From positions 174 through 64,173 of the forward strand of contig JAGCDY010000085.1 of NCBI GenBank assembly GCA_017650925.1: DNA of 64,000 nucleotides. Reading direction: 5' to 3'. The position numbers and the translations under genes are program-made. Source of the DNA: a bacterium. Its GTDB lineage: Bacteria > Auribacterota > UBA3054. Positions 1-41,459 of the stretch are shown here, in pieces (positions within the stretch are counted from its first letter, which is position 1; each line of letters begins with the position of its first letter). The notes under the pieces were generated by a model. The model ran no database searches. It had not been told where the DNA came from and was given only the letters and a program-made list of their open reading frames with translations.

Positions 1-1658
1 TAGGCGGGGAAAGGACCACTGTCACAATAAGGTTTCTGGCGGGCAAAAGAGCGCATTTGGCGATCAACGGCAACTTCGATCTTTTCGAGGGCGACGCTTT
101 GAAGCTGAACAATTTCGGCTCCCGCGGATGCGACAGTTACCGCTGGCTTCTGGACGGCGAATTTATAAGCGGGGCGGGAGCGGCGGTCTATCAGGACGGC
201 TTGGAAAGCGGCGAGCATTCCGTGGTTCTGGAAGGGTACAATGTCAAAGGGGAACTGGCCGCCTCCGTCACGAACAATTTTTATGTCTCGCCCTATATGC
301 CCTCCGTTTATCTCACTGAATTCAACAAGATGGCCAGCAGCGTGACCGTCTGGCCGAGAATGGCGTCCTTCAGGGATGGCATGCTGATCCGCTTCGACTG
401 GGGTGAGGGCGCCGGCTATACGACCTGGCAGGAACTCAGAGAGGATTCCAAATTCACGCATGAATTCGCCCATACCGGAGACCACTATGTGAAATGCGAG
501 GTGAGCCTGGGAGAACTCAGGGGACACGCTTCCTTGTTGTTCAGGCCCGACCGTGAGCTCTATTACCAGGCCAGGATAAAGGAAAATTACTCCGACGAGA
601 TCACGGTCTCCGCCGGCGAATGCGTGACGCTGCTGGGCGAGGCCGGCGCGCGCAATTTCTGGCGCGAGGATCCCATGAATCCTGAGATTGGCCTTGTGGA
701 AGACCCGCTCGCCGAGGAAACTGTCTGCGGCCCCTTCGCGAAACCGGGGACCTACGGCTTCATCTATTACCGGGCGGACGACGAAGCGGTCTCCGCTCCG
801 CAGCTTTTGAAAGTCATGGTCGAGCCCTCCGAGGTGACGTTCAGCTCTTTCGAACTGAACGGCATGGTCATCACCAATACCATTTACGGCGAAGGCCCCC
901 TGGGCGGCTGCGCCGTCGGCGTGAGGGCTGGCAGCGAGCTCTATTTCATCACCAACAGAGCGGACGGCGCTTTCGTTTTCCCGACATTCCAGGGCAACGG
1001 TACGGGCATCCTGACCCTTAACATCATGCATCCTGAACATGACGGCATCATGACGAACGTTTTCCTGAACTCGGGAGCCGTCTTCCAAATGAGGAAAAAG
1101 AGCGGCACGGGCTACGTCTACTTCAACTGCACCGGAGAACGCTCGGCGCTGCCTCTGGAAGGCGTAAATATTAAGATCGCCGGTCTGGAGGGCAGGACCA
1201 ACGGGAAAGGCCGCTCCGCCGCGTTCACGCTGCCCTACGGCGAATACCTGGCGGAACTGACTTACCCTGGCATGGAACCGGTCGTGACGAACGTCCTGTC
1301 CTTCAGTCAGACGACGACCTGCAACGTTGTCATGCGAGGCAGGCAGTATGTCTTGAGCGGCATGCTCTACGGGACAGGCGGCGAGATCGTGACCAACGGT
1401 CAGATCCAGGTGCTCAACAGGGAGACCATGAACATCGCCAAACGTTACAACCTGGAAGGCCTGCCCTTCTTCGACGTCGTATTGGGCGGAACGGCGACCA
1501 CGCTGCGTTTCAGGCCTGAGGGCTACGACAACCTTAACATGGACATCGCGCTGAAGAACAACGACGCGGAAGATTTCGTTCTGACTCCGGAACCGCTTTT
1601 CATAACGCCTCTCATTTTCCTGCTTCTCTTGAAACTACATCACAAGGATAGATCATGA
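1..1658 (+). CDS. C-terminal ~550 aa of a giant PEP-CTERM surface protein (third paralogue of the 1545/1550-aa proteins); 5' end lies outside the window
   Basis: This frame is open from nt 3, so the TTG at 57 in the ORF track is not the true start. Residues before it (TVTIRF..) still align with HSVTLRV.. of the 1655..6292 protein. The product aligns by eye with the last third of both full-length paralogues (YRWLLDGE; RFDWGEGAGYTTWQE PKD-like block; YGTGGEIVTNGQIQVLN; DFVLTPEP). Its TGA overlaps the next ATG (ATGA at 1655-1658). Confidence 0.85.
   Translation, partial: GGERTTVTIRFLAGKRAHLAINGNFDLFEGDALKLNNFGSRGCDSYRWLLDGEFISGAGAAVYQDGLESGEHSVVLEGYNVKGELAASVTNNFYVSPYMPSVYLTEFNKMASSVTVWPRMASFRDGMLIRFDWGEGAGYTTWQELREDSKFTHEFAHTGDHYVKCEVSLGELRGHASLLFRPDRELYYQARIKENYSDEITVSAGECVTLLGEAGARNFWREDPMNPEIGLVEDPLAEETVCGPFAKPGTYGFIYYRADDEAVSAPQLLKVMVEPSEVTFSSFELNGMVITNTIYGEGPLGGCAVGVRAGSELYFITNRADGAFVFPTFQGNGTGILTLNIMHPEHDGIMTNVFLNSGAVFQMRKKSGTGYVYFNCTGERSALPLEGVNIKIAGLEGRTNGKGRSAAFTLPYGEYLAELTYPGMEPVVTNVLSFSQTTTCNVVMRGRQYVLSGMLYGTGGEIVTNGQIQVLNRETMNIAKRYNLEGLPFFDVVLGGTATTLRFRPEGYDNLNMDIALKNNDAEDFVLTPEPLFITPLIFLLLLKLHHKDRS
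1578..1655 (+). other. PEP-CTERM-type sorting signal (VLTPEP + hydrophobic helix + basic tail)
   Basis: The C-terminal 26 aa are VLTPEPLFITPLIFLLLLKLHHKDRS. This gives a P-E-P motif, a helix of about 14 hydrophobic residues, then K/H/R residues right at the stop codon. Confidence 0.7.
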
Positions 1659-4600
1659 AAAAACTTTGTCTGCTTGTCTTACTGACGACCGTTTCTCTTT
1701 TCGCCACTCCGCCTGAAAAAGAGAAAGAACTTTTGGTGGTGGACTTCGAGTCCGCCAGCGCCTCTAAGATCATGGGCACCGACGTGACGAAACTCCAGGA
1801 CCCGGATTTTCCCGAACAGGTCAAAGCCCTGAAGTATCTTGACAAGATCATCTTCAAGACCGCCGAGGGCATCTTCACCGGCACGGTGGGCGTGGCTTAC
1901 CGCGACGTCAACATGGTGGAAGTGAGAGCGGGCTATTTTCAGCCCCGCAACAACGGCTACAGGGAGATCTTCCACTTCACCTATGACCAGGACGCCCTGG
2001 TGGGCTGGATGGAATACACCTACGCGGCCAAGGAATACAACATCCTCTACACCAAGGCCAGCGGGAAACTGACGGCCTACAGCGAGGAGAGCCGCATGAA
2101 GCATTTCCGCTGCGGCAACGAGGACGGCGCGGCGCTAAGCGAGATGTCGGAAGAGCAGAAGGCTGAGATCCATGCCAACGCTTCCATCCCGCAGCCGGCC
2201 ACCTTCTACACCAACATCTGGGAAGTGCCGGAATACGTGACGCAGAATTACCTCATCTGCTACACCAAGGACGCCTACGAGTATTCCAAAAGGAAAGGCG
2301 GCATCAACCACCTCATGGCGCACGGCATCGTCCATGGCACGCTGCTTCTTAGTAACAGCAACATCAAAGCCTGCCTGAGGCTGGGTCACTCACAGCTGCT
2401 CGAGGATTACCCTGACAATCACAATTCCAGCAAGAGCCTCGGCGACTTCAACGGCTACAAGAACGGCTGCCAGGACGCTTACGACATGCGCTGCCGCTAC
2501 GGATGCGACATGGGAAGTATAGGCATCAAGCACGCCACCTACACCGGCCTTGCCAACGTCAACTTTTCCCAGACAGGCTCCGAATCCATTCCCTTCAACT
2601 GCATGGACTCTGACTTTTTGGGCGGCACAGGCTGGTGCCACGAGGACGGCCACACCATGGGCGGCCGCCACTATATCGACACCTACGCGGAAAACAACAG
2701 GAACAGTCTTTTCGACCACAGCTTCGGCTGCCACAACACGCCTCCTGGGGCGCCCAGGGAATACGGCTCAGTCATGGCCCGCTCCGCCGGTCTTTTCAAC
2801 TACTATTCCTCCACCAACATTTACTACGACGGCGTGCCCATTTCCACTAACGCCAAATGTCGCGTGGCCGACACCTGGACGAAGATTAGGCGCTACGCCG
2901 CCAGATACCGCTGCAATCCCGTCATTCCCGACGTGGACGGACTGATCTGCAATGAAGAGTTCGAATATCCCGACGGCATGGGCCTTATGTGGCAGGAGGG
3001 CGGCGAAGGTTTCTGCACGCCCTGGGAACACTGCAACACAAATATTTTCCAGACCGTTTCCGATACTATGGAAAGGCCGGGCTTTCACAGAGGCGGAGTG
3101 CTGAGGATCAATAACGTCAACGCCGGCTCCGAATCGATCAGACGCTTTATTTTCTGGGGCCGCAACATCAACGGCGACTATCACTACAGCAGGACGAACT
3201 TCTGGCTGAGGAGCACCCTGAACATAAAGAACGAGAATTTGTTCTACATTTATTTGGGCAGTTTACCCATTCGATTCGGCGATGGCAGGATCAGGATCAT
3301 AAACGGAAACACCGGCTTGACGTATGAATACGACAAGACTTTCAGCGTTCTGGTTCACTTTGAAATGGGCCCTCAGGACACTACGGTCAGCATTTGGAAA
3401 GATTTTGAGGGAGAAAGCGCCCCCGATCCTTCCAGCGCCGCCTTTACTCTGGAAGTCAGCAACACCACTTATTTCGGCAACTACCGTTATCTCACGCTTT
3501 ATTCCATGAACAACTTCCAGGGCGAACTGGATGATCTGAGGATGGGCTTCACTTATGAATCGCTTGATCCTCCCGAGCGGCCTATGGGCTTCCAGATCGT
3601 TCCCGGCGGCTACACCAACGACTTCATCAGGATGGTCTGGCGCAACGTCACCGAACCCGAAAGTTTCGAGATCTTGAGATCAACGGTCAACGATCTCGAT
3701 ACGGCGGTCTCCGTAGCCACCCTGGAAGGCGGCACGGCAGGCTTTAAGGACACGCATGTGGACGGCGGCGTAACGTATTATTACTGGCTGAAAGCCAATT
3801 ATTCCGACCACGTCTTCACGACGCTCGTGAGGAAAGGCATCGTGGGAATCCCTGTCGACACGGTGGAAGCCAACGGCGAATACACGATCGGCCAGGGACA
3901 GGTGGCGCACCTCACCGCCAAAGGCACCACGGGCTATCTGCCAATGATCCGCTGGACGGTCGGAGAATTCGACACGGTCTTTTTGACCAACCATTACGAT
4001 TACGCCTTCAACGAAAGGATCATCATGACGCCGGGCGATTACCCGGTGAAGATCGAAGTGACGGAGCAGGAAGTCCAGACCGACATTCTCGAAGACACCA
4101 CGGTGCTGCACGTCACCAACAGCTATCCGCACGTGACCTTCGAACTGCAGACCGAAGATCCCATGGCTGGCAAGCCTTTGATCTTCAGGGCCTATCCCAC
4201 CGACCCCGGCACCAACGACATCTTGACCGTCAGATGGCGCTTCTCGTCCGATGCGGAATGGACCCCCTTTACCAACAGCTACTACGCGGCGCACATTTTC
4301 CCGGAGGAGGGAAGATATACCGTCGAGTGCGAAGTTATGGATAACTACGGCGCCACCACCGTGACCAGCAAGGAGTTCGTTTTTGGCGCCGCTTCGGCCA
4401 TCCCGGTGATCCCGGCGGTCCTTGCCATGGACAACGGACATTCCGCCGTGCTGCTTCTTTCTAACGACGGCTCCGCGCCCTACGATTTCGTAATCGACAC
4501 CACCTCCAGAATGCTCACCGCTTATCCCTCTAGCGGCACGGTTCCCGGCGAAGCCGGCGGCGTCACACCGGTCATTATCAAGCTCCAGCACCAGACCACG

Positions 4601-6292
4601 GGCGGCACGGCTGGCAACTACACCATCAAGGTCATAGTTGGGGAAAACATCCACTCCGTGACTTTGAGAGTGCCTTATTCCGAATGCCAGTTGGCCATCC
4701 AGTCTCCTGACATGGTGAAGAACAAAGATTACGCTCTCTTCTCAGCCTTGGGCAGCCAGGACGATTACAATTACCGCTGGTTAGTTGACGGCGAGGACGT
4801 GAGCGGCATCCTGCGCGGCCTCCTCTGGAGAGGAACGCTCGTAAGGACGCCCGGCGACCACAGCCTTGTGCTGCAGGCTCTCAAAGATGACGAGACGGTG
4901 GTCAAGACCGTGACCAACACCCTTTACATCGCCTCCCGGGATCCGGAAGTTTATCTCGAGGAAGTCAAGCGCGAGGATCTCACCGTCACTTACTGCCCGG
5001 TCGTGATCGTCAACGGCAGGGAAGAGGCTAACGTCCGCTACAACTGGGACGACGGCAACGGCTGGACCGTCTGGCAGGAACCCAAAGAGATCTCCCACAC
5101 CTTCGCGAAAGGCCGGACCTATCTCGTCCAGTGCCAGGTCAGGGTCGGCCAGCAGAACAACGCCACCTCTACCAAGTTCGATCCGGAAACGGCCCTCACG
5201 CTTTCGGCCTCCTTCGAAAACGGCAAAAAGGACTTCTCCTGTCAGGTGGGCAAAACAGTTACCATGAACATCGCGAGCTTCAGCGGAACGGGGAGCGTTT
5301 GGCGGGAAGCCATCTCCAATCCTGAACTGGAACTCATAGCTGACGCTTCCGCGCAGAGCGTGGAAGTGACGCCCACCGTTCCCGGAGAATACGTTTTCCT
5401 GGCCTACACTCAGAACGACAGTGCCATTGGCGCTCCGGAAGTTTTGATCCTTAACGTCGAGGAAGACTTCGAGGATATTGCCCACGGCTGCGTGGCCGGC
5501 GTCATAGTCACCAACACTGTCTACGGCAGCGGCGTCTGCGCCGACTGCGTGGTCAGGGTGACCGGCAAGGATTTCGAGCTTTCTGTCTCCAACCGCTTCG
5601 ACGGCTCCTTCATCTTAGAAGGCCTGCCCATGGGCCCCTTGACGCTGAACGTCAGCGGCGACATACTGCGGGGCAGGATCGTGGAAGTTGCTCTCACGAA
5701 CGGCGCCTCCACCCTGAATGTTCCCGTGGAAATAGCGGACGCCAACACCATCTTCTACGCGCAGCTGAACGACAAGCGCTCTAACCTGCCCATCCAGGGC
5801 GCGGAGGTGAGGGCCGGGTCGAAGCTGGGAACGACGACCAATAAGGGCCGTTCCACCGCCCTGACCATGCCGGAAGGCGAATACGTTCTCGTCTGCGACG
5901 TGCCATACCGCGGGCTCATAATAACCAACGTCTATCCCGTTGGCAACTCCAAGACGTACAATCTTCTCAGCGACGGCTACTCTCCCTCCATCCACGGCTT
6001 CCTCTACGGCACGGGCGGCGAGACCGTGAAGCAGGGCGTCATCCAGGTCCTTTCCACCCTGACCATGAACATCGTTCAGAGATATGCCGTTTCTGGCGTG
6101 CCTTATTACAGCATCGGTCTCCTTGACGACCACGAGGTCACGCTGCGCTACCGCCTGGAGGATTACGACAACGAGAACTTCACCTTCACGCCGAAAGGCT
6201 GTCTCGACAGGGACGTCGTGCTGACGCCCGAACCGGGTATCGCGGCGCTGCTCGCTCTGCTGCTCTTCCTTATGGGGAGAAAGAGAGGATAA
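1655..6292 (+). CDS. Giant (1545 aa) secreted multidomain protein: reprolysin-like metzincin domain + LamG-like + FN3 + PKD/Ig-like repeats + carboxypeptidase-regulatory-like repeats + PEP-CTERM anchor
   Basis: Signal peptide MKKLCLLVLLTTVSLFA. Approximate domains by residue number: reprolysin-like block at aa 185-420 (YLICYTKDAYEY..GGINHLMAHGIV..SNSNIKACLRL, MRCRYGCDMGSI, HEDGHTMGGRH); LamG-like jelly-roll at aa 430-637, ending ELDDLRMGFTYESL; FN3-like at aa 643-730 (..GVTYYYWLKA); PKD-like blocks (TVRWRFSSDAEWTPF..GRYTVECEVMDNYGATT; VRYNWDDGNGWTVWQE); three CarboxypepD_reg-like sandwiches at aa 1278-1515; PEP-CTERM tail. Confidence 0.85.
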   Translation: MKKLCLLVLLTTVSLFATPPEKEKELLVVDFESASASKIMGTDVTKLQDPDFPEQVKALKYLDKIIFKTAEGIFTGTVGVAYRDVNMVEVRAGYFQPRNNGYREIFHFTYDQDALVGWMEYTYAAKEYNILYTKASGKLTAYSEESRMKHFRCGNEDGAALSEMSEEQKAEIHANASIPQPATFYTNIWEVPEYVTQNYLICYTKDAYEYSKRKGGINHLMAHGIVHGTLLLSNSNIKACLRLGHSQLLEDYPDNHNSSKSLGDFNGYKNGCQDAYDMRCRYGCDMGSIGIKHATYTGLANVNFSQTGSESIPFNCMDSDFLGGTGWCHEDGHTMGGRHYIDTYAENNRNSLFDHSFGCHNTPPGAPREYGSVMARSAGLFNYYSSTNIYYDGVPISTNAKCRVADTWTKIRRYAARYRCNPVIPDVDGLICNEEFEYPDGMGLMWQEGGEGFCTPWEHCNTNIFQTVSDTMERPGFHRGGVLRINNVNAGSESIRRFIFWGRNINGDYHYSRTNFWLRSTLNIKNENLFYIYLGSLPIRFGDGRIRIINGNTGLTYEYDKTFSVLVHFEMGPQDTTVSIWKDFEGESAPDPSSAAFTLEVSNTTYFGNYRYLTLYSMNNFQGELDDLRMGFTYESLDPPERPMGFQIVPGGYTNDFIRMVWRNVTEPESFEILRSTVNDLDTAVSVATLEGGTAGFKDTHVDGGVTYYYWLKANYSDHVFTTLVRKGIVGIPVDTVEANGEYTIGQGQVAHLTAKGTTGYLPMIRWTVGEFDTVFLTNHYDYAFNERIIMTPGDYPVKIEVTEQEVQTDILEDTTVLHVTNSYPHVTFELQTEDPMAGKPLIFRAYPTDPGTNDILTVRWRFSSDAEWTPFTNSYYAAHIFPEEGRYTVECEVMDNYGATTVTSKEFVFGAASAIPVIPAVLAMDNGHSAVLLLSNDGSAPYDFVIDTTSRMLTAYPSSGTVPGEAGGVTPVIIKLQHQTTGGTAGNYTIKVIVGENIHSVTLRVPYSECQLAIQSPDMVKNKDYALFSALGSQDDYNYRWLVDGEDVSGILRGLLWRGTLVRTPGDHSLVLQALKDDETVVKTVTNTLYIASRDPEVYLEEVKREDLTVTYCPVVIVNGREEANVRYNWDDGNGWTVWQEPKEISHTFAKGRTYLVQCQVRVGQQNNATSTKFDPETALTLSASFENGKKDFSCQVGKTVTMNIASFSGTGSVWREAISNPELELIADASAQSVEVTPTVPGEYVFLAYTQNDSAIGAPEVLILNVEEDFEDIAHGCVAGVIVTNTVYGSGVCADCVVRVTGKDFELSVSNRFDGSFILEGLPMGPLTLNVSGDILRGRIVEVALTNGASTLNVPVEIADANTIFYAQLNDKRSNLPIQGAEVRAGSKLGTTTNKGRSTALTMPEGEYVLVCDVPYRGLIITNVYPVGNSKTYNLLSDGYSPSIHGFLYGTGGETVKQGVIQVLSTLTMNIVQRYAVSGVPYYSIGLLDDHEVTLRYRLEDYDNENFTFTPKGCLDRDVVLTPEPGIAALLALLLFLMGRKRG
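2639..2671 (+). other. Metzincin zinc-binding consensus HExxHxxGxxH (HEDGHTMGGRH, aa 329-339)
   Basis: Codons cac gag gac ggc cac acc atg ggc ggc cgc cac, read directly from the sequence. Confidence 0.7.
6218..6289 (+). other. PEP-CTERM-type sorting signal
   Basis: The C-terminal 24 aa are VLTPEPGIAALLALLLFLMGRKRG, immediately before the TAA stop. Confidence 0.8.
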
Positions 6293-7453
6293 ATGAGACG
6301 TCTTTGGCTGATACCGCTTGCCCTGGCGCAACTGTGCTTCGCTTCCCCGGAAAAATTAAAAACTTACGGGGAAGTGGAGCGCTATTTCCTGGACAAGGGA
6401 TCGACCAATGCTTTTTACGAAGCGATGGACGTCATGAAGTCGCGGCATCCCTTCGATTTCTCGCCGGAATACAAAAAGGCGGTGGCCGCGCATTTCGCCG
6501 AGATCACCAACATCAACGCCACTATCAAACCAAGCTTGCTTTATCGTACGCAGGCATTGTTTGCCAAGACCTTCGGCCCGAAAAAACTTTTCGCCATGGA
6601 AGCCTCCGCGCTGAAAAAGAAGCTGGACGGCAAGACGAGCTGGAAGGAGACCTACGCCCCCAAATGGCTGAAAGTCATAAAGGACGTGGAATCGCTTCCG
6701 CTGCCGGACGGCCGCCACTGCGACATCCTGCGTCAGAAAAAAGCCAACGGCAAGGCGCTGCTCTTCTGCCACGGCGGCGGCATGATCCTGCCGCCCATGC
6801 TGCAGCACTGGGATCTGGCGCGCTACCTTTTGAAGCATGGCGAAAGGGACGTCTGGTTCCCGGATTATCCCTTGCTGCCCGATACGGACATGTACCGCTC
6901 CACCACCACCTGCTATCTGACCTACAGGGAAATGCTGAAGAAGTACAAGCCGGAGGATATCGCCTTCATCGGCGACTCTGCCGGCTGCGCGCTTTGCCTG
7001 ACGGTCTGCTTCAGAGCCAGGGACAACGGCCTGCCTCTGCCCAGCCGTCTCTTCCTTTTCTCTCCCGCCCACATAGACGTTTCCGAAGAGAATTGCAAAG
7101 AGGAAATGGCCATCCTGGCGCCCGACGACATTTTGATCCCGCTCCAATTGATAGACAATCTCAACGTTTTCCTGCGTCCCGGCCCCGAGGCCGCCCACAA
7201 CGAGTGCGACCCGTACCACGGGGAAATCGAAGGCTTCCCGCCCATGGACATCTTCACCGGCAGCAAGGAAGTCTTCTCCTCCCACGCCATTCGCTTCTAC
7301 GAACTGGCGAAAAGGAAGGGGATAGACGCCACCTTGAAGATCGGCAAGGCCGTCATGCACGACTGGATCCTCATGCCGATGGGAAAAGAGAGTTTGGAAG
7401 TGAGAAGAATGATAGCCGAAAAACTTAAGAATGATAAAATAAAAAACAAATAA
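6293..7453 (+). CDS. Secreted alpha/beta-hydrolase, hormone-sensitive-lipase-like esterase/lipase family
   Basis: Signal peptide MRRLWLIPLALAQLCFA. Oxyanion-hole motif HGGG (LLFCHGGGMILP) and nucleophile elbow GDSAG (FIGDSAGCAL). The ATG directly abuts the TAA of the upstream giant gene (TAAATG). Confidence 0.8.
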   Translation: MRRLWLIPLALAQLCFASPEKLKTYGEVERYFLDKGSTNAFYEAMDVMKSRHPFDFSPEYKKAVAAHFAEITNINATIKPSLLYRTQALFAKTFGPKKLFAMEASALKKKLDGKTSWKETYAPKWLKVIKDVESLPLPDGRHCDILRQKKANGKALLFCHGGGMILPPMLQHWDLARYLLKHGERDVWFPDYPLLPDTDMYRSTTTCYLTYREMLKKYKPEDIAFIGDSAGCALCLTVCFRARDNGLPLPSRLFLFSPAHIDVSEENCKEEMAILAPDDILIPLQLIDNLNVFLRPGPEAAHNECDPYHGEIEGFPPMDIFTGSKEVFSSHAIRFYELAKRKGIDATLKIGKAVMHDWILMPMGKESLEVRRMIAEKLKNDKIKNK

Positions 7454-7470
7454 TCAATACAGGAACCATC

Positions 7471-10400
7471 ATGAAAAGAGTATTTCTGCTCAGTTTTCTT
7501 CTGGCCGTCTGCGCCTTCGCCAGCGTCCCCAAGAATGAAAAGGTCTTAACGGTCGACATGACTTGCGAGCAGCCGCCCACGCTTTCAAGCGGCTACGGCA
7601 GCGGCAACATCACGAAATTGCAGGACGAGGACCTGCCCGATCAGGTGAAAGCCCTGCAAGTGGGCGACACGCTCTTTATGAAAACGCCCGACGGCGTCTT
7701 CACCGGCCTCTGCACCGTGGCCTACCGCGACATCAACCTGGTGGAAGTCAGGGCGGGCTATTTCCAGCCCCGCAACAACGGCTACAACGAGATCTGGCGC
7801 TTCACCTACGACCAGGACCAGATGCTGGGACAGGCGGACTACACTTATCTCAACCATGAGTACGCGATACTCTACAACCATACGAAAGGTCTGATGTCGC
7901 TTCCGCCTGTCAAGAAGACATTCACCTGCGGCGGCTGCGACGGGCCTATCGACGATGTTATCGCCCGTGACGGCGTGAGGCAGGTCATGGACAAGATCGA
8001 GGCTGAGCAATATTACACCAACGACTGGCAATGCGATGAGTATGTCACCCAGCACTACATGATCGTCTACACCAAGGAAGCGGTGGACGAAGCGATGGAC
8101 CGCGGCGGCATCAACAACGTCATGGCCCAGGGCATTGTCCTGGGAACGCTCATTCTTAGCAACAGCCACGTCAGGTCCTGCTTCAACCTCGCGCACTCCC
8201 AGCTCGTCGATTATCCCAACCCTGTCGGCCAGATCTGCAATTCCAGCCTGGCCTTAAGCAGCCTGTGCAACTCTAAGAACGGCCTTGAGCAGATCGAGCA
8301 GCTGAGGGCCCGCTACGGCGCCGACATGTGCTCTATAGCCGTTCTGATGCCGACCTACACTGGTCTTGCCTACGTGTCGGGCGGCGTAGCCGGCAGCGAA
8401 AGCTCCGCCAACAACTGCATGGACGTGAACTTCGTCAACACCACCGGCTGGATCCACGAGGACGGCCACAACATGGGCGGCCAGCATTACGATGAGACCG
8501 GCACGAGCAGCGGCGGACTCTTCAAGCACAGCCACGGCTGCCACAACACACCTCCGGGCGCGCCCATGGAGTACGGCTCGGTCTTGGCCAGATCCAACGG
8601 CATCTTCAACTATTTCAGCTCCACCAATATTTTCTACGACGGAGTGCCCATCTCAACGAACCTGAAGTGCCAGGTGGCCCTGACCTGGGAGAAGACGCGC
8701 CGCTACGCCTCGCGCTACCGCTCCGTGCCTTACCACGCGGCGGGGGACATGATCCTGCATGAGAGCTTCAATTACCCAATCGGCAGCGGCTTGATGTTCA
8801 AGGAAGCCGGCTGCGGTTTCGCGAGCCCCTGGTATTCCTGCCTTTCCAACATTTTCTTCATTCAGGACAGGGATCTTGGCGACGATTCCGCCATGCACGA
8901 GGGCGGAAGCCTGAGGATCTGCAACGAGTCTTCCGAAACGGCCACCACCAGGCGTTTCATCAACTGGATGAAATATTCTCCCGCCTCTCTTGACACGCTC
9001 GCGGGAAATGACATCTGGCTCTCGGTCTGGGCCGACATGGACGAAGAGGGCGGCAGCTACGGCTATGGCGGCTTCAGGCTCGGCGGCTCCTACGAGGCCT
9101 TCACTTTCTACAAGGACGGCACGATCAACGTGTTCGATTTCGGCACGGGCATCAAGCATAACTTCGGAACGCCGGCCCATTATCTGGCCCGCTGCACGAT
9201 AACGACCAACGATGCGGGCTACGCCTATACGGACGTTTATCTGTGGGTCAACCCGGATATGAGCGAGGAACCGAAAACAAGCGACTGCGCTTTCCATAAA
9301 TACGGCTACTCTTACTGGGGCTCCAGCTTCTCCAGTCTGTATCTCTACGCGCCTTCCGGCTTCAAGATGACCTTCGACGAATTCTGCCTGGGCTATACCT
9401 TCGATTCGATCAAGAACAGAGCCGTGCCTTACAGCTTCATCTGTATGAACGGGGACGACAAGATCAGGCTGCGCTGGCGCAACACCACGAAAGGGAACGT
9501 CTCTTTGTGGCGCAACACCGTGGAAGATCTCGCCACGGCCGTGAAGGTCAGGGAAGGGGACAACACCTTCCAGGCTTACGACGACAACGACTGCGTAGCG
9601 GGCCAGACTTACTATTACTGGCTGACCGGCGATTTCCCGACTCCGGAACCCCGTAAGGGCGTCAGGGGCATCCCCGACGTCAGCGCGGAATGCAACGGCG
9701 AATACACGATCGGCCAGGGCCAGGCGGCGCATTTGTCCGCGGAAGGTAGTAAGGGCTATTTCCCGGCCGTGCGCTGGCTCGTTGGAAGCGACACGACGCT
9801 TTTCAGCACCAACTTCTATTACTACGATTACAAGGAAGACCAGATCTACTGGCCCGGCGATTATGACGTTGAAGTGAGAGTGACGGACCGCCAGTTCAGG
9901 ACCTGCATCTGCACCAACTATACGGTGCTGCACGTGACCAACGCCTATCCGCACGTCGCTATCTGGAGCGAGGCGGAAACAAGAATGGTCAACGTTCCGC
10001 AGATCTTCAGCGCCGATCCCACCGACCCCGGCATCCACGACTCCCTCGACATCCGCTGGGATTTCGGCGACGGCAGCGGCTATTCCGACTGGACGAATTA
10101 TTATTTCGCCAGGCACACCTTTGACAGAAGCGGCGATTACACCGTGAAATGCCAGGTCAGGGACAACTACGGCGCCGTGACCGAAACGACTATCACGCAT
10201 ACTATCGAAGGCGCCTCGGCCCGTCCCGTGGTGCCCTCCGAGATCACGCTGGAAAACTGCCGCAGCGGCGTATTGCTTCTCTCTAACCTTGGCTCCGTGC
10301 CCTGCGACTTTGTAATCAACAATTCCTTCGATTCCCTGAAGGTCAGGCCCAGGACCGGCACCATCAATCCCACCGCGAGCGGTTCCGTTCCGGTCGTGCT

Positions 10401-17210: not shown

Positions 17211-18251
17211 TTAGTTGATGGTTGGGAAAGCGGGAAGATTCTGAAGCATCTCGGACTCGGACTGGGGCGTGGCTCCGGGAAGATCCTGAGCGGGGGCGAC
17301 GTTCAATCCGGTGGAGCCTCCGGGCTCATACTGCGGGATGTTGACTTCGGGGGGCTTGGGCAGCGGCATGGTGGATTCCATGATATTGTTGACCGTGGCG
17401 TTCAGCTGCTCGTCCTGGGAAAGCGGAGAACCGAAGTCTGTCGGGATCAGGGTAATGACGACGCGGCGGTTCAGGCGCTGGCCGTCGGCGGTGGCGTTGC
17501 TCGCGACAGGCCTATTGGCGGAATAGCCGGAGATGGCCATGCGCTTAGGATCGACGCCGCCCTGCTTCTCGAGGAAGTGTAGGACCGCCAAGCTTCTGGC
17601 CGCGGAGAGTTCCCAGTTGGACATGAAGTTGGAGCCTTCCGGCAATTCGTTGCTGTCCGTATGTCCTTCGATAGCGATGAGGAAGTTGGGATATTCGGAA
17701 TTAACCACGCGGCCGACTTCCTCAAGCACGGGGTAGACGGCTTCGCGGAGCTGGGCTCTGCCTTCGTCGAAAAGGACTTCCGAGAGCATCGTGATCTGCG
17801 TGGTGCCTTCCTTGGTCGTCTCGACCTGGACGTAGCGCCCGTCAGCCTGGATGTTGTTGGCCAGAACGTAGCTTTTGGCCACGATCTCTTCGTAGCGGGC
17901 GGCCATCATCTTGGTCCTGGCTTCCATCTTGGCAAGCTGCTTCTCGTATTTGGCCACGACCTTGGTGGAGACTTTCGCCTCGCCGCTGTACTTGTCTACG
18001 TCGGCGTAGTCTTCGAGCATGCGCGCGCGGTGGATCTCGTAGGCTTCGCCGGCGATCGCGCCGGTACGAAGACCCGCGCCGGCGCCAGCGCCAGCGCCGC
18101 TGGCGACGCCGACGCCTCCGCCGGCCGCGCCGATGCCGGCGCCCATACCGCCTCCGATTAGACCGCCTATCAGGCCGCCTCTTTGCATGGCGGTGCAGGC
18201 GCTAAGAAAAAGTGCCAGGATTGCTATTGTGGTAAGGGAAGATCTTTTCAT
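17211..18251 (-). CDS. OmpA/MotB-family peptidoglycan-binding lipoprotein with glycine-zipper and coiled-coil regions
   Basis: Lipobox LFLSAC and a Gly-rich zipper (GGLIGGLIGGGMGAGIGAAGGG). OmpA_C block: IAIEGHTDSNE..SNWELSAARSLAVLHFL..ISGYSANRPVASN..GQRLNRRVVI. Confidence 0.85.
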   Translation of the reverse strand: MKRSSLTTIAILALFLSACTAMQRGGLIGGLIGGGMGAGIGAAGGGVGVASGAGAGAGAGLRTGAIAGEAYEIHRARMLEDYADVDKYSGEAKVSTKVVAKYEKQLAKMEARTKMMAARYEEIVAKSYVLANNIQADGRYVQVETTKEGTTQITMLSEVLFDEGRAQLREAVYPVLEEVGRVVNSEYPNFLIAIEGHTDSNELPEGSNFMSNWELSAARSLAVLHFLEKQGGVDPKRMAISGYSANRPVASNATADGQRLNRRVVITLIPTDFGSPLSQDEQLNATVNNIMESTMPLPKPPEVNIPQYEPGGSTGLNVAPAQDLPGATPQSESEMLQNLPAFPTIN

Positions 18252-18901
18252 TCAGAGACCTCGCTTGTTTCTAACGTGGGCGCCCCGTCTTCCTTCGTCT
18301 CGTCTCCCTTCTTCAGAAGCCTGAAGATCGCGAAACAGCCGATGAGCAGCACAAGGAACGCTATGGTTAATATGTTGAAATATTTGTCGATGAATTGTTT
18401 TATTCTCTCGCCGAAGATCCTGATCAGTCCGGCCACCAGGAAGAAGCGCGCTGAGCGGCTGACGGCCGAGGCGATAAGGAAAGGCCAGAAGGCCATTCCG
18501 AAAACGCCTGAAACGATGGTGAAGATCTTATAGGGGATGGGCGTGAAACCGGCGGCGAAGACGCACAGAAAGCCGTACTGATCGTAGAGCGTTTTGACCG
18601 TGTCGAAGCTTTCGGGAGTGAAGCCGGGGACGTAGGCAAAAAAGAATGCGCTAGTCTTGCTCCACAAAAAGGCGCCTATCACGTAGCCCAAGACTCCGCC
18701 GAGCACCGAGGAAACCGAGCACCACAAGGCGTACCACAAGGCGCGCTTCGGTTTCGCCAGCGACATCGCTATGAGAAGAGGATCGGGCGGTATGGGAAAG
18801 AACGATGATTCTGAAAAGGAAAGCAGATTGAGAGCGAGGAGCGCATACGGCGAAGGGGCGCATCTCATCACCCAGTCGTAGATCCTACGCAAAAAGCTCA
18901 T
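18248..18901 (-). CDS. YqaA/DedA-superfamily membrane protein
   Basis: SESSFFPIPPDPLLIAM motif and about 5 TM helices. There is a 4-nt overlap with the downstream gene. Confidence 0.75.
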   Translation of the reverse strand: MSFLRRIYDWVMRCAPSPYALLALNLLSFSESSFFPIPPDPLLIAMSLAKPKRALWYALWCSVSSVLGGVLGYVIGAFLWSKTSAFFFAYVPGFTPESFDTVKTLYDQYGFLCVFAAGFTPIPYKIFTIVSGVFGMAFWPFLIASAVSRSARFFLVAGLIRIFGERIKQFIDKYFNILTIAFLVLLIGCFAIFRLLKKGDETKEDGAPTLETSEVSE

Positions 18902-19282
18902 TCAGTCTTTCTTTTCAAAAACGGCTATGGGATTGACCCTGAAACGGAAAGTCATCTCCGTGTCATTCACCTTCAGGCTCAGAAGCGAATTGAGCCTGGT
19001 CAGGAGAAGCTGATAGGGGATCTTGACTTCCTCCTCTCCGACCTTTATGCCTATGCTAGCCTGGCCAAGAAGATCGCGCGATTCGTAGACCGTTTCGAGC
19101 AGCTTGCTGAAACGCTTGATCTGATCGGCCAGTTCGGGTGTGAAGGAATACGTTTTGCCGCATTCCTTGCAGGTCAAGAGAGTGTCGGGGTTGAGATCCA
19201 GAAGAGAGAACTCCACGGCGTGGCCGCAGCCGACGCAGTTGAGTTCGATCTTGTGGGCGTCAGTATAATTTTCCGTGTTCAT
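18902..19282 (-). CDS. Small zinc-ribbon protein, unknown function
   Basis: CVGC...(17 aa)...CKEC pair near the N-terminus. It abuts yqaA with no gap and has its own extended -10 element upstream. Confidence 0.55.
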   Translation of the reverse strand: MNTENYTDAHKIELNCVGCGHAVEFSLLDLNPDTLLTCKECGKTYSFTPELADQIKRFSKLLETVYESRDLLGQASIGIKVGEEEVKIPYQLLLTRLNSLLSLKVNDTEMTFRFRVNPIAVFEKKD

Positions 19283-19307
19283 GGTGTCCTATTTTGTTTT
19301 ATAGATG

Positions 19308-19316
19308 ATTATACCA
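19308..19316 (-). promoter_or_regulatory. Extended -10 promoter element TGGTATAAT (- strand) upstream of 18902..19282
   Basis: The + strand reads attatacca. It lies about 26 nt upstream of the ATG. The same element recurs at 47017, 47042 and 57038. Confidence 0.5.
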
Positions 19317-19340
19317 TTTTCTAACTTTTTTTGTTGGCAA

Positions 19341-19367
19341 TAAAAAAAGACACCCTCGCGGGTGTCT
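19341..19367 (-). terminator. Rho-independent terminator after tRNA-Glu
   Basis: On the - strand: agacaccc gcga gggtgtct followed by ttttttta. It starts 8 nt after the tRNA 3' end. Confidence 0.8.
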
Positions 19368-19374
19368 TGAGTTT

Positions 19375-19450
19375 TGGCGCTCCATAGGAGAATCGAACTC
19401 CTGTTTTGTGGATGAGAACCACATGTCCTAGGCCACTAGACGAAAGGAGC
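19375..19450 (-). tRNA. tRNA-Glu (anticodon CUC), CCA encoded
   Basis: Folded by hand. Reverse complement: GCTCCTT TC GTCT AGTGGCCTA GGAC A TGTGG TTCTCAT CCACA AAAC AGGAG TTCGATT CTCCT ATGGAGC G CCA. 76 nt, with one U-U mismatch in the acceptor stem. Confidence 0.85.
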
Positions 19451-19460
19451 AAATGTTTTT

Positions 19461-19631
19461 TTACTGTTCGCTGATGGCTCCGGCGGGGCAAACGCTGGCG
19501 CAAAGGCCGCAGGAAACGCACTTCTCCGGATCGATATGGTACTGGCCTTCGCCTTCCGCGATGGCGCCCTGGGGGCACTCGGAAGCGCAGGCGCCGCAGC
19601 TGAGGCAGTCTGAACTGATTTTGTAAGCCAT
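19461..19631 (-). CDS. Clostridial-type 2x[4Fe-4S] ferredoxin (56 aa; below the ORF-track length cut-off)
   Basis: My own translation is MAYKISSDCLSCGACASECPQGAIAEGEGQYHIDPEKCVSCGLCASVCPAGAISEQ*. It contains two CxxCxxCxxxCP motifs. SD aggag lies 6 nt upstream of the ATG. Confidence 0.85.
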   Translation of the reverse strand: MAYKISSDCLSCGACASECPQGAIAEGEGQYHIDPEKCVSCGLCASVCPAGAISEQ

Positions 19632-19691
19632 GTTTTCTCCTAATGGTTTGGTTAAAATATCAACGGTAGGGAAATGGTATCAGAAATGCGG

Positions 19692-20813
19692 TCAAAAGTA
19701 AAGGCTCAAGGTCTTTTCGTAGACTTTTCTCGTCTCGCGGGCGCAGCGTCCCCAGGAAAAAAGCTTCGACCTCTCCAAAGCCGCCGAGGAGAGTTTCGCC
19801 CTCAGCTCTTCATCGTAAAAAAGGTCGAGCATCGCTTTCGTCCAGCTACTTTCGTCATCGCAGGGTAGGAGGAGTCCGGCGTCGCCCACGACTTCCGGAA
19901 GCGAGGTGGAATCCGAGACCGCGACAGGGGCGCCTTCGCCCATGGCCTCCAGGACGGGAAGCCCGAAACCCTCGTATTTTGAGGGGAAGAGGAAGGCCGT
20001 TGCGTTCCTGTAATAGTGCGGCAGATCATCGAGGGGGACGTAGCCCTTGGCGATGACGTGGTCTGAAAGATCGTTTTCCCTGATGGCCGCGAATATCTCG
20101 TCGGAGAGCCAGGTGGGGGAGCCCGCCAGCACCAGTTTCGGCAGGTCCTTTTCCTTCCTTCTGGCGGCGGCGTAGGCTCTCAGGAGCATCGGCAGATTCT
20201 TTCTCGGTTCGAGATTCCCCAGATAAAGGAAATATTTCTCCGGCAGACCGCCTTTGAAATCAGGGTTCGGCTCGGTAAATTCCAGTCCGCCCAGATAGAT
20301 CGTCGTCACTTTCTCTTCCGGAACGCCGTACAGATCGACCAGTTCTTTTTTGGAGAACTCGCTTATGGTGATGAAATGGCTGGCGTTTTTCAATCGCTTC
20401 GCGAAGTAGCTCTCAAAGTAAGCTCTGCGGTCCTTGGGATGCGTTTCCGGATATCTGATGAGCGACATGTCGAAGACGGTCACGACCTGGGGCCCTGAGT
20501 ACGGAAGGGGAACGTAATTCATCTCATGATAAATGTCGGCCCCTATTTTGGGCGCCCCATGCTTGAAAAAGAATTCTTTTATAGGCTGCGTTATGCGGTA
20601 GGGCTTGGGAAAGCATTTTTTCAACACCTTCCTCACGCCGGCGTCAAAAGAAGGCGCCGCCTCCAGGATCTCCCTGGAAAAGCGGCGTCCGTAAAAATAG
20701 ACGTGGTCGTCTTCGGGATATTCCCGACTCATCGCCTTGAGAAGGTTCAGGGTATAGTATCCGACCCCCGATTTGGGAGCAAGCAGCGGGAATGCGTCGA
20801 AGAGAACTCGCAT
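19692..20813 (-). CDS. Glycosyltransferase family 4
   Basis: YEGFGLPVLEAMGEGAPVAVSDSTSLPEV (E-x7-E) and a typical GT-B layout. Confidence 0.85.
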   Translation of the reverse strand: MRVLFDAFPLLAPKSGVGYYTLNLLKAMSREYPEDDHVYFYGRRFSREILEAAPSFDAGVRKVLKKCFPKPYRITQPIKEFFFKHGAPKIGADIYHEMNYVPLPYSGPQVVTVFDMSLIRYPETHPKDRRAYFESYFAKRLKNASHFITISEFSKKELVDLYGVPEEKVTTIYLGGLEFTEPNPDFKGGLPEKYFLYLGNLEPRKNLPMLLRAYAAARRKEKDLPKLVLAGSPTWLSDEIFAAIRENDLSDHVIAKGYVPLDDLPHYYRNATAFLFPSKYEGFGLPVLEAMGEGAPVAVSDSTSLPEVVGDAGLLLPCDDESSWTKAMLDLFYDEELRAKLSSAALERSKLFSWGRCARETRKVYEKTLSLYF

Positions 20814-20814
20814 A

Positions 20815-23379: not shown

Positions 23380-23442
23380 CTTATAAGACCTTAATTTTTA
23401 TTATTTACCAAATTATTCTTTTTTCATTCTATCAAAAAGCTC

Positions 23443-25014
23443 CTATCTCTGTAAAGCCCGCCTGCAGCGCGGAATGACCTCGTCAACAATGAAGCTGCGG
23501 TCGTCTTTATGCATGGTCAAAGCGGTCGCGGGGATATAGATAAGAGCGTAAAGCGCTCCGGAAAGGGCAAGCTGGAAGGCCCAATGGGTGAAAAAGCGGG
23601 TGTCGGGCAGGACCGCGTTCACGTATGTAAAGGCGAAATAGGCCAAAACGCCGCAGATGGCGGCCGTCAGGGATATGGTGAGCGTGGAGAGGCTGAAGGG
23701 CTGGGATTTGACGAAGAAAGCCGTGCAGATGACCGCCAGGCCGTTCCTGATCGTTATGGCCGCCAAAGTCGCCAACGCCGCGCCAACCATGGCGTAGGGG
23801 GGTATAAGCAGAAGGTTCAGCAGAAGGTTGGCGAAGACTGCCAGAATATTGATGTAGAGTATCATTCTGGAATAGCCCGACATTATCATCATCGTTCCCG
23901 AATGTCCCGCCAGGGTGCTGACGATCTGGGCGCAGACCAGTATCCTCAGGGTAGTGAGAAGCATCGGGTCGGGTCTCAGGTGGAAAACGGAAAGGATCTG
24001 GGCGGGGAAGAGCAGCATCATTCCCGCGGCCGGGAGCGTTACGTAGAGCATCCAGCGCGTGACGGTCTTGTAAAGCTCGTTCATGCGGCGATAATCCTTT
24101 TCCTTGCTGATCTTGGCGATCATGGGCGCGAAAAGCGAGGAGTAGGCCAGAAGGATGTTGGCTATGATGAGCGTCGAGATGCCGGCCGCGTTGTATTGGG
24201 ACACGTAGTTTTCCGCGTTGTGGAAATAGCCGAGCATCATGATGTCGCATTTCTTCATGAAGACCAGAATGGCGGCCTGCAGGACGAGAGGAATGGAAAA
24301 CAGAAAGAGCGCGCGCCGGTCGTAATTAGGGGAATATTCCTTGAGTTTCGGCGCCGCCAGGGCGTGGCACCTTATCGAGATGACGAAGGAAAGAAGGTTG
24401 ACCAATACCATGCCGCAGGCCAGACCCATGATGCGGTTTTCGCTGCGGGGGAGGAACCCGACCAGCAAAACGACCGCAAGCCAGCCGAATTTCTGGCAGA
24501 GCGTCTCGATCCAAACGGAGTGGCGGATGTCGTTCAGGGCCCTCAAAACGGCAAGCGAGATGGTCGTGAGCGCTATGGGGATAAGGTAAAGGGAAAGAGA
24601 GCGCAAGACCCGGCAGAGCAGCCGGACGGACTCTTCGTCTTTCAAGTAATGGTTGGCGATATGGGGCGCCAGGAAGTAGACGCACGCGATCATGACGATC
24701 GAAGCGGCGAAGGAGAGCTGGAAGGCCCCCTTTATGACGCCCTTGATGCGTCCCCAGTCCTTGTCGACCCAGTGTACGCCAATAAAACGCTGGACGCCGT
24801 CGGAAAGGCCGAGCCGCGCGAAAGGCTCAAGGATCGCGAAGAAAGAGAAGGCTATGATCCAGATGTTGAGTTCGGAAGAGGCCTGGGAGTGGTCGAAACG
24901 CCAGTAGAGAATGACGTTCGTAAGGAGTCCCATCAGGGTGGACAGGACGTACCCGAACATCGAGAACCCCGCGCCCAGGGCCACGGTCTTTTTTTCCTGA
25001 ACGTATTTCTGCAT
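23443..25014 (-). CDS. MOP-superfamily polysaccharide/oligosaccharide flippase (Wzx-like)
   Basis: 523 aa with about 14 TM helices. N-terminus typical of polysaccharide biosynthesis proteins. The ATG abuts the lepA stop (TAGATG). Confidence 0.6.
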   Translation of the reverse strand: MQKYVQEKKTVALGAGFSMFGYVLSTLMGLLTNVILYWRFDHSQASSELNIWIIAFSFFAILEPFARLGLSDGVQRFIGVHWVDKDWGRIKGVIKGAFQLSFAASIVMIACVYFLAPHIANHYLKDEESVRLLCRVLRSLSLYLIPIALTTISLAVLRALNDIRHSVWIETLCQKFGWLAVVLLVGFLPRSENRIMGLACGMVLVNLLSFVISIRCHALAAPKLKEYSPNYDRRALFLFSIPLVLQAAILVFMKKCDIMMLGYFHNAENYVSQYNAAGISTLIIANILLAYSSLFAPMIAKISKEKDYRRMNELYKTVTRWMLYVTLPAAGMMLLFPAQILSVFHLRPDPMLLTTLRILVCAQIVSTLAGHSGTMMIMSGYSRMILYINILAVFANLLLNLLLIPPYAMVGAALATLAAITIRNGLAVICTAFFVKSQPFSLSTLTISLTAAICGVLAYFAFTYVNAVLPDTRFFTHWAFQLALSGALYALIYIPATALTMHKDDRSFIVDEVIPRCRRALQR

Positions 25015-40689: not shown

Positions 40690-41459
40690 CGAATCTCTGC
40701 ATAGTCGGCGCCATGGGACGCATGGGAAACAACGTGGGCAGCCTTGCCGCCAGCTTCGGTTTCACCGTGAGCGGAGCGCTTGAATTCAAAGGCTCGCCCA
40801 ATGTCGGGAAAGCTTTTTGCGGCGTTAATGTGACGGACGACATAGAAGTTGCCCTGCAGGGCGCCGACGTCGTCATAGAGTTCGCGCTTCCAGACGGCAT
40901 AGCGGAAAGGGCGGCCGCCTACGCGGCCCATAAGATCCCGGCCGTCATAGGCACGACGGGCGTTTCCGAAGAGGGGCTCAGCGCGCTTAAAGAAGCCTCG
41001 GCCGCGATCCCTCTTATCCACGCCGCCAATTTCAGCCTGGGCGTCAATCTTTTGGGAGAACTTTTGAAGAAAGCCTCCGCCGTTCTTGGCGAGGAATACG
41101 ACGCCGAAATAGTGGAGATGCATCATCACAACAAGAAAGACGCCCCCAGCGGCACCGCGCTCTATCTCGCGAAGATGGTGGAAAGCGGCAGGGGAGTCGG
41201 AAAGGAAAAAGAGATCTACGGACGTTTCGGCAACGTCGGCGCCAGACCCTCTGGCGAGATAGCGATCCATTCGCTTAGAGGCGGCGACGTCGTAGGCGAC
41301 CACACGGTGATTTTCGCCGCGGACGGCGAGAGAATTGAATTCACTCACAAGGCCACGAGCCGCGCAAATTTCGCGTCCGGAGCCTTGAGAGCCGCGAAAT
41401 ATCTCATAGGAAAAGAGCCCGGCCTTTACACGATGGCCGACGTTATAGGTTTAAACTGA
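40686..41459 (+). CDS. dapB: 4-hydroxy-tetrahydrodipicolinate reductase
   Basis: [40 protein letters not shown] and [14 protein letters not shown]. Confidence 0.95.

Follow-up and report, generated by a model that had tools for sequence, protein, structure and literature searches.

Adamalysin-like metzincin proteins with PEP-CTERM-type tails in a conserved five-gene unit of an uncultured rumen bacterium

The first 12,600 nucleotides of the window, a stretch of 64,000 nucleotides from contig JAGCDY010000085.1 (assembly GCA_017650925.1), carry on the + strand five co-directional, tightly packed genes in the order gA-gB-esterase-gC-OsmC, of which gA, gB and gC encode very large paralogous proteins. 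We propose, with a probability of roughly 0.7, that these three are secreted, sorting-tagged, adamalysin-like zinc proteases carried on immunoglobulin (Ig)-like stalks and encoded as a co-directional unit by an uncultured diderm UBP3 bacterium of the rumen. The three open reading frames (ORFs), the first of them cut by the window edge, are as the first-pass annotation of this DNA had described them. Homologues were collected by searching the full-length query against 5.8 billion clustered proteins; P-numbers denote clusters of homologous proteins and L-numbers related loci.

3..1658, + strand: gA, paralogue A, truncated by the window edge to its last 551 residues and ending in TPEP, a helix and HHKDRS
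1655..6292, + strand: gB, paralogue B, 1545 amino acids (aa), with PKD at E=3.4e-11 and the Mep72 model at E=0.0036; orthologues P0005-P0009
2639..2671, + strand: zinc motif HEDGHTMGGRH of gB, residues 329-339
7471..12123, + strand: gC, paralogue C, 1550 aa; homologues P0001-P0004
8023..8745, + strand: adamalysin-like catalytic domain of gC, residues ~185-425, with the zinc motif HEDGHNMGGQH at 8455-8487

Judged by sequence and by model, the head of these proteins is an adamalysin-like metzincin domain with an intact HExxHxxGxxH zinc site, and hence a predicted zinc endopeptidase. In 14 family members spanning 24-97% identity, H329, E330, H333, G336 and H339 are invariant, and the Met-turn GS[VI]MA lies ~33 residues past the third histidine, with M372 nearly invariant. 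Metallopeptidase hidden Markov models (HMMs) match residues ~197-384, in gC with E=2.2e-10 for the NCBIfam Mep72 model and E=3.7e-5 for Reprolysin_5. When the 14 members were scanned at E<=1, Reprolysin_3 matched 12, Reprolysin_5 10 and Reprolysin_4 seven of them; the orthologues and the A group also carry precomputed matches to PF13688 or PF13582. Word-indexed homologue searches with profiles A1 and A5 returned one new protein each, and the superfamily emerged only from an exhaustive HMMER search, in which the N-terminal profile was compared with 1.84 billion representatives and gave 7,308 matches at E<=0.001 and 3,044 at E<=1e-10. E-values between the family profile and proteins that pass Reprolysin_3/4/5 go down to 1e-30 or lower. 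Among the matches listed, 145 of the 146 relatives outside the core family have HExxHxxGxxH, and all nine relatives scanned with Pfam scored above the cut-off for at least one of Reprolysin_3/4/5. A profile broadened to 25 sequences, including distant relatives (A3), retrieved leucurolysin-A from the PDB (1.9e-7), followed by trimerelysin II, CpaA (4e-5) and adamalysin II; the narrow profile A1, a 10-sequence family alignment, reached E=0.08 at best.

The predicted structure gives the same picture. An AlphaFold2 model of gC residues 51-430, built from a 25-sequence alignment (pLDDT, the predicted local distance difference test, 83; pTM, the predicted template modelling score, 0.86), has the metzincin sheet-and-helix layout, with HEDGH on the active-site helix and the C-terminal helix present. 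Foldseek placed CpaA first among PDB entries (5e-11), then profragilysin-3 (1e-8), ADAM10 and snake-venom metalloproteinases. The 50 PDB matches listed (E from 5e-11 to 4e-5) all belong to the metzincins or the ADAM family, and the target-normalised template modelling (TM) score reaches 0.68 for catalytic-domain-only targets. The reprolysin-like catalytic block claimed in the first-pass annotation, which was to fall if the head matched neither a metallopeptidase HMM nor a metallopeptidase structure, thus survives on both counts, through the Mep72 match, the profile link to Reprolysin relatives and the model's metzincin neighbours. Canonical adamalysins and ADAMs (MEROPS M12B) have an Asp directly after the third zinc histidine, giving HExxHxxGxxHD. 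At this position gB and gC have Tyr (GGRHY, GGQHY) and the A group has Ala (GGQHA), so that by their sequences all three groups lack the canonical Asp.

The rank of CpaA (6o38) among the structural matches, and its appearance in the profile search as well, bear on a narrower reading of the same heads: they could be O-glycoproteases or mucinase-like enzymes of the CpaA/StcE type that cut only beside glycans, with the Ig-like, FN3 and unassigned domains binding glycans and with plant, microbial or host glycoproteins as targets. CpaA cleaves at O-glycosylation sites (PMC7542363), six family members weakly match Peptidase_M66, the StcE family (E ~0.02), and a wealth of carbohydrate-active enzymes has been reported for UBP3 genomes (PMC9765126), with an esterase co-encoded here. 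Yet identity to CpaA is ~16%, the query-normalised TM score is 0.47, and the NCBIfam model of CpaA gives 14 bits where 750 are required. Comparable matches come from profragilysin, ADAM10 and the snake-venom enzymes, none of which is a glycoprotease, and Pfam scans recognise no carbohydrate-binding module. We therefore regard this restriction to glycoproteins as unlikely, while granting it an appreciable chance of being right.

The catalytic domain is preceded by a second conserved module.

7633..7920, + strand: beta-rich N-terminal module of gC, residues ~55-150, pro-domain-like, followed by Cys153-Gly154 and a low-confidence linker

In the AlphaFold2 model it forms seven beta-strands (pLDDT mostly 75-97) packed on the catalytic domain. 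Among the matches listed, 37 of the 146 representative relatives have alignments that begin no later than HMM position 110 and so reach into this module, which is therefore a common accessory of the superfamily and not a novelty. Within the family C153 is nearly invariant and G154 invariant. The position and size of the module, together with a match of ~400 columns to profragilysin, suggest that it is a pro-domain, and a cysteine switch through Cys153 is possible. Such a switch was ruled out as a general family feature, since the Cys is missing in most distant relatives, and was kept as a clade-specific possibility. A lipoprotein signal in gC (LAVC) was also rejected because orthologues lack that Cys. 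The signal peptides previously noted in the paralogues hold on inspection of the sequences by eye, and the motifs AYRD[VI]N[ML]VEVRAGYFQPRNNGY, HEDGHxMGGxH and WDFGDGSG were all recovered.

At the opposite end, the proteins share a sorting-type tail.

6224..6289, + strand: PEP-CTERM-type tail of gB, TPEPGIAALLALLLFLMGRKRG, TIGR02595 17.7 bits with the tail scanned alone
12055..12120, + strand: PEP-CTERM-type tail of gC, TPEPASLSLIILALLAFVRRNR, TIGR02595 20.8 bits with the tail scanned alone

Every complete A, B and C orthologue examined ends in [VIL]-[LF]-T-P-E-P, ~17 hydrophobic residues and a basic end. The sequence of TPEP, helix and basic end also occurs in P0016 and P0017, which belong to a more distant paralogue type (see below), and the alignment of 14 members shows P1530, E1531 and P1532 to be nearly invariant. 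The cut-offs are 16 bits for TIGR02595 and 20.7 bits for PF07589, and among C-terminal sorting models TIGR02595 scores highest when the gB and gC tails are taken alone. In whole-protein scans gC falls below both cut-offs (TIGR02595 13.7 bits, PF07589 14.6 bits), and gA and gB have no match. From the conserved motif we infer sorting by an exosortase. All bacteria with PEP-CTERM proteins are reported to possess an outer membrane and genes for exopolysaccharide (EPS) (Haft et al. 2006, PMC1569441), and both are found in this lineage, with kds/lpt genes upstream of the cassette and polysaccharide genes in the window.

Between head and tail, gC consists of the following parts.

8752..9390, + strand: conserved domain, residues 428-640, earlier called LamG-like, with the motif E-x-F-x-Y...GG-x-G-[FW]...W
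9403..9684, + strand: FN3-like domain, residues ~645-738
9682..11304, + strand: Ig-like stalk, residues 738-1278, in which the triplet of PKD-like, PKD and Ig-like domains occurs twice, including the WDFGDGSG PKD
11317..12051, + strand: C-terminal beta-sandwich modules, residues 1283-1527, the first CarboxypepD_reg-like

The several PKD and Ig-like modules of the first-pass annotation are the best supported. PKD domains lie at ~830-915 and ~1105-1190 (PKD/PKD_4 E ~1e-9, the second PKD E=1.9e-4), score 43.4 bits in gB and 37.3/39.5 bits in gC against cut-offs of 23.5/27 (PF00801/PF18911), and match in all 14 members. Residues 915-1010 have a weak likeness to Ig domains of the ASH/Cep192/CFAP65 type (E=5e-5). 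Comparison with hhalign revealed an internal duplication, which pairs residues 738-828 with 1012-1103 (97%) and the first PKD with the second (98%). The FN3 assignment was confirmed by the match of the family profile to the Fn3-like protein 3mpc (E=2.5e-6), alongside FN3 modules of pectate lyases (2.7e-6), while the Pfam fn3 model has no match to the region. For residues 428-640 neither kind of search supports the label of a LamG-like jelly-roll, and we do not adopt it: Pfam gave no match at E<=10 in whole proteins, in the excised region or in the 14 members, and the profile found no PDB sequence. Elsewhere this domain was seen only in P0162, a 342-aa secreted protein outside the window, in which an AYEGFNYP…GG-x-GW…W…WVNP…EIRLG domain is followed by a Pro/Ala/Lys-rich tail. 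P0162 carries the domain alone, and the domain is therefore an independent module. Of the three carboxypeptidase-regulatory sandwiches proposed earlier, the first matches CarboxypepD_reg below the cut-off (E=6e-5, 23.7 bits against 32.3; 13 of the 14 members match weakly), the second weakly resembles the first (70% in hhalign), and the third matches nothing in the Pfam scan or the hhalign comparison. The set of Pfam and TIGRFAM matches expected at the outset was thus found in part: PKD was returned, Reprolysin_5 and CarboxypepD_reg appeared below their cut-offs and TIGR02595 with the gB and gC tails alone, and LamG and Pfam fn3 were not matched. The architecture shared by gA, gB and gC is a signal peptide, the N-terminal module, the metzincin domain, the ~210-residue domain, FN3, the duplicated PKD/Ig stalk, two to three beta-sandwiches and the TPEP tail.

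This architecture is specific to one lineage. The full-length query retrieved 14 clusters among the 5.8 billion proteins, none of them named and all restricted to rumen genomes of UBP3. Their zinc motifs distinguish three orthogroups (A, HEIGHNMGGQH; B, HEDGHTMGGRH; C, HEDGHNMGGQH), with 42% identity between B and C and 31-35% between A and B or C. The truncated gA matches the C-terminal part of P0011 (1520 aa, HEIGHNMGGQH) with 97% identity and so represents a full paralogue. Along gB and gC, identity in 50-residue windows varies from 16% to 80%, conserved islands alternating with diverged stretches. All related contigs of sufficient length, from ~8 UBP3 genomes of ruminants (goat, sheep, yak, buffalo), share the order gA-gB-esterase-gC-OsmC, and the triplication is therefore older than the radiation of these species. 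By their sequences, gA, gB and gC are ancient paralogues, in agreement with the earlier description of old paralogues with conserved islands; the shared architecture, which it had proposed to look for in related genomes, is present there. A recent duplication was ruled out because in ~8 species separate orthologues exist for every paralogue and follow one another in unchanged order.

The battery of three that had been described is accordingly embedded in a five-gene unit, which also includes the esterase gene between gB and gC, missed earlier, and the OsmC-like gene.

6293..7453, + strand: esterase, 386 aa, a secreted alpha/beta-hydrolase of the HSL family with HGGG and GDSAG motifs and a signal peptide
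12140..12535, + strand: OsmC-like gene, 131 aa, OsmC E=9e-17
12554..12596, + strand: terminator-like hairpin with a T-run, 14 pairs of which 11 are G-C, directly 3' of the OsmC-like gene; matched by consensus pattern only

The esterase matches Abhydrolase_3 in Pfam (E=3.6e-24) and the GESAG-motif HSL subfamily model in NCBIfam (E=6e-24), and keeps its position in all related loci covering the site, at 84-92% identity. The same holds for the OsmC-like gene (88-99% identity), which is probably the last gene of the unit. Terminator-like sites in the region are in total no more frequent than expected from shuffling. The stop codon of gA overlaps the start of gB (ATGA at 1655), that of gB runs straight into the esterase ATG (TAAATG at 6290), and spacers of 17 nt and 16 nt separate the esterase stop from gC and the gC stop from the OsmC-like gene. 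The earlier claim of translational coupling therefore stands for gA and gB, and at the TAAATG the gene coupled to gB is the esterase instead of the third paralogue, because the gene at 6293..7453 sits between gB and gC.

Further proteins of related kinds occur in other genomes. A fourth, distant paralogue type (P0016/P0017) has ~1,620 aa, 26% identity over its full length, the motif HEMGHN[MI]GCNH and a PEP-CTERM tail; in L017 it lies ~9 kb downstream of the gC-OsmC cassette.

L017 10001-14842 and L018 7567-12450: fourth-type paralogue loci, with a metallo-beta-lactamase (MBL)-fold protein, an ABC-2/Wzt transporter, NadA and a 615-626-aa ORF upstream and ExbB-ExbD downstream

Two related genomes have extra PEP-CTERM-tailed ORFs within the cassette, one of 1191 aa between the esterase and gC (L005 6382-9957) and one of 444 aa between gB and the esterase (L007 7472-8806), the latter with a weak ZmpA-like match (7e-5).

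Heads and stalks have evolved differently. In each orthogroup, identity is 85-100% over the first ~900 residues and falls to 45-65% over the last ~600. For gC, the ratio of non-synonymous to synonymous substitution rates (dN/dS) spans 0.06-0.17 for the head and 0.09-0.43 for the stalk. Compared with the head, the stalk has dN and dS values that are raised two- to three-fold (dS in most pairs); between the window and L004, dS is 0.76 in the stalk and 0.30 in the head. Comparison with L004-L008 distinguishes three discrete types of gC stalk (10171-12045, residues 901-1525). These patterns point to a history of recombination mosaics and relaxed constraint rather than gross positive selection.

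Taken together, the parts would work as follows. After export, an exosortase encoded elsewhere would cleave at the PEP motif and deliver the proteins to the cell surface or the exopolysaccharide layer. The N-terminal module and the conserved Cys-Gly linker may hold the enzyme latent until removed, as the pro-domains of ADAMs and fragilysin do. The ~1,000-residue stalk would hold the zinc-endopeptidase head off the cell, where extracellular proteins or glycoproteins would be cut; the host or environmental glycoprotein matrix suggested earlier as substrate is conjectural. Specificity would be broadened by the divergence of the three heads (HEIGH in A, HEDGH in B and C), and the co-encoded secreted esterase would strip ester substituents from the same substrates.

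A number of observations weigh against this reading, and they concern its tail, its latency, its transcription and its heads. No exosortase model matched the window ORFs scanned with Pfam and NCBIfam (essentially all ORFs of at least 200 aa in the 64 kb, the unassigned ones also checked by hydropathy), and none was found in the flanks of the related loci L001 and L015-L019; the search thus covered the window and the related flanks. The gA tail has no TIGR02595 match even when scanned alone. The PEP-CTERM tails reported earlier consequently stand as a motif in gA, gB and gC and, for gB and gC, as tails above the TIGR02595 cut-off when scanned alone, and do not stand as a score for gA or for whole proteins. 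These gaps favour the view that the tail is a plain C-terminal membrane anchor, with no exosortase involved and the proteins tethered to the inner membrane, periplasmic or released otherwise, all the more as exosortase genes usually sit among EPS genes, which are present here. Against it, TPEP is invariant across paralogues that are 24-42% identical overall and would not be needed by an anchor alone, PEP-CTERM outscores all other C-terminal sorting models, a ~170-kDa protein with a ~1,000-residue stalk is hard to fit in the periplasm, and further PEP-CTERM ORFs lie in the same cassette of related genomes. We give a plain anchor a small chance of being correct.

As regards latency, the idea of a pro-domain with a cysteine switch draws on position and partial conservation, the Cys being kept in only a minority of the distant relatives, and the module may or may not act in this way. 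Co-transcription of the five genes is likewise deduced from their spacing.

For the heads, gC stays below the Pfam gathering scores (Reprolysin_5 24.5 against 27, Reprolysin_3 21.0 against 22.4) and gB has no Pfam peptidase match. Both carry Asp331 (2645-2647 in gB, 8461-8463 in gC) at the third HExxH position; among 145 relatives no charged residue occurs there (I 57, M 42, L 24, F 6, V 5, W 3, A 3, Q 2, T 2, C 1). In gC, Leu moreover replaces the Met-turn Met at residue 372 (8584-8586; EYGSVLARS), likewise in the 97%-identical P0001; other C orthologues retain the Met (EYGSIMARS). HEDGH is kept in both orthogroups across species (P0009 has HESGH), and is therefore a selected variant and not a product of decay. 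That B and C are catalytically impaired pseudo-proteases, mainly adhesins or scaffolds, with only A (HEIGH) active, would fit the unusual Asp, the lost Met and the resemblance of their stalks to adhesin stalks (PKD, Ig, FN3), but has a slim chance, given that B and C keep the three zinc His, the catalytic Glu and the Gly without exception in all species, that the heads are the most conserved and strongly constrained part of the proteins and that the Met-to-Leu change is limited to one strain lineage.

The distribution of the family and its chromosomal surroundings agree with a diderm rumen host. When one genome per GTDB species was scanned with the N-terminal profile of the family, matches were found only in 'bacterium UBP3_UBA3054' (99% identity) and in RGIG metagenome-assembled genomes, the latter from the rumen, reticulum, omasum and jejunum of goat, sheep, yak and water buffalo. 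The candidate phylum UBP3 is reported to be forestomach-specific in buffalo (PMC8831627). In related contigs the cassette is preceded by kdsB/A/D/C-lptC/A/B-like genes. The remainder of the window is an ordinary chromosome of a diderm anaerobe, with LepA, AspRS, DnaX, DapB, a heptosyltransferase, OmpA, family 4 glycosyltransferases (GT4), a Wzy-like protein, flippases, an Fe-only hydrogenase, formate-tetrahydrofolate ligase and two tRNAs. From this gene content (the kds/lpt-like genes upstream; OmpA, GT4, Wzy_C-like, flippase, heptosyltransferase and UDP-glucose dehydrogenase genes in the window), the predicted host is a diderm with lipopolysaccharide and polysaccharide genes.

Two polysaccharide-type clusters flank the housekeeping genes, and neither contains an exosortase. 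The first (15423-25014) has two GT4s, an OmpA-like protein, a DedA/VTT protein, an 854-aa Wzy_C-like protein with 13 transmembrane segments and a MurJ/Wzx-like flippase; the second (39643-48787) has the heptosyltransferase, an epimerase, UDP-glucose dehydrogenase, a second flippase and a pectate-lyase-like protein.

Directly after OsmC, two genes for multi-pass membrane proteins (12525-15441) are kept in all related genomes covering the position, and in related contigs, too, the cassette is followed by a 481-aa multi-pass membrane protein and then a 511-aa protein with 10 transmembrane segments and TPR. The first, with nine predicted transmembrane segments, has a weak match, below the cut-off, to TMEM260-like protein O-mannosyltransferases (E=5e-4), and the second has ~10 such segments and a C-terminal TPR part. 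The TTG start of the first, at 12525, overlaps the terminator-like hairpin, and the true start may lie further downstream. The membrane domains of both lack a PDB sequence match, found only for the TPR part of the second, and the two proteins were rejected as paralogues of each other on comparison. From sequence they could be GT-C glycosyltransferases that act on the neighbouring Ig-rich proteins. A more ambitious combination of these elements would be a UBP3-specific surface apparatus of three to four latent heads on ~1,000-residue stalks, the stalks exchanged by recombination and O-glycosylated by the two downstream membrane proteins, with HEDGH marking a functionally new metzincin subtype. 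We consider it improbable that all of this holds at once; if true, the glycosylation of the stalks would be a bacterial counterpart of the mannosylation of Ig-like IPT domains by TMEM260.

If the three proteins are indeed surface-sorted zinc proteases, as we favour, the cassette is a concrete candidate for the degradation of extracellular proteins or glycoproteins in a group about whose feeding and attachment almost nothing is known. It bears on nitrogen turnover in the rumen and offers enzyme heads that can be expressed, including the unusual HEDGH variant. To the uncharacterised reprolysin-like proteases of bacteria, a very large family, it adds one architecture, and it is no new kind of system. 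The statement in the first-pass annotation that no characterised protein has this domain combination is fair for the exact architecture, and too broad for the modules and the general design, which are common among the more than 7,000 relatives. What is new is the exact ~1,500-aa architecture and the five-gene cassette, both lineage-specific to an uncultured phylum; every module and the overall design are known.

The closest known systems are the bacterial reprolysin-like metallopeptidases (Reprolysin_3/4/5, M12B-like), which have a homologous catalytic domain with HExxHxxGxxH and a Met-turn. About a quarter of the top relatives share the N-terminal beta-module, and relatives show the same succession of a head, Ig-like, FN3 or PKD repeats and a C-terminal sorting tag, with Por_Secre_tail, PEP-CTERM, Big_2 and leucine-rich repeat (LRR) modules among them. 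The window proteins differ from these peptidases in scoring below the Pfam cut-offs, in the Tyr or Ala after the third His and in the HEDGH of B and C. By sequence they belong to none of the CpaA, profragilysin and Mep72 families. CpaA of Acinetobacter (PDB 6o38), a type-II-secreted O-glycoprotease, is like the heads a secreted multidomain metzincin and aligns over 306 columns in Foldseek, but has four N-terminal repeat domains, the chaperone CpaB and export by the type II secretion system (T2SS), and lacks both the PEP-CTERM tail and the Ig-like stalk (PMC7542363; PMC4713064). Profragilysin-3, the B. fragilis toxin (BFT; PDB 3p24, 7pnd), resembles the heads in having an adamalysin-like domain after a ~170-residue pro-domain, the ~400 aligned columns covering both, whereas identity is 9-12%, the TM score ~0.5 and the rmsd (root-mean-square deviation) large, so that homology of the pro-domains is not established. 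BFT is moreover a soluble toxin of ~45 kDa with neither stalk nor sorting tail, and its latency works by an Asp switch; the candidate in the window family would be the conserved Cys-Gly.

Mep72 (PA2783, P. aeruginosa; NCBIfam NF052434) provides the best curated model for gC, through its first ~190 positions. Like the heads it is a secreted metzincin with non-catalytic modules, and it associates with the biofilm matrix and undergoes processing in the course of export (PMC4334185). The scores of 39.8 bits for gC and 15.9 for gB against a cut-off of 645, with only positions 5-194 of 573 of the model covered, indicate that the window proteins are not its orthologues. Mep72 also differs in its length of ~570 aa, two carbohydrate-binding modules, T2SS export, the inhibitor-like partner BamI and the absence of a PEP-CTERM tail. 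With the PEP-CTERM/exosortase (EpsH) system, finally, the cassette shares the signal peptide, the PEP motif with a transmembrane helix and basic cluster, a diderm host with EPS genes and several such proteins per genome. The majority of PEP-CTERM proteins are described as coming from single-gene operons and as sharing little homology with known proteins (Haft et al. 2006, PMC1569441); unlike them, the products of this cassette are predicted enzymes of 1,500 aa from a putative multi-gene operon.

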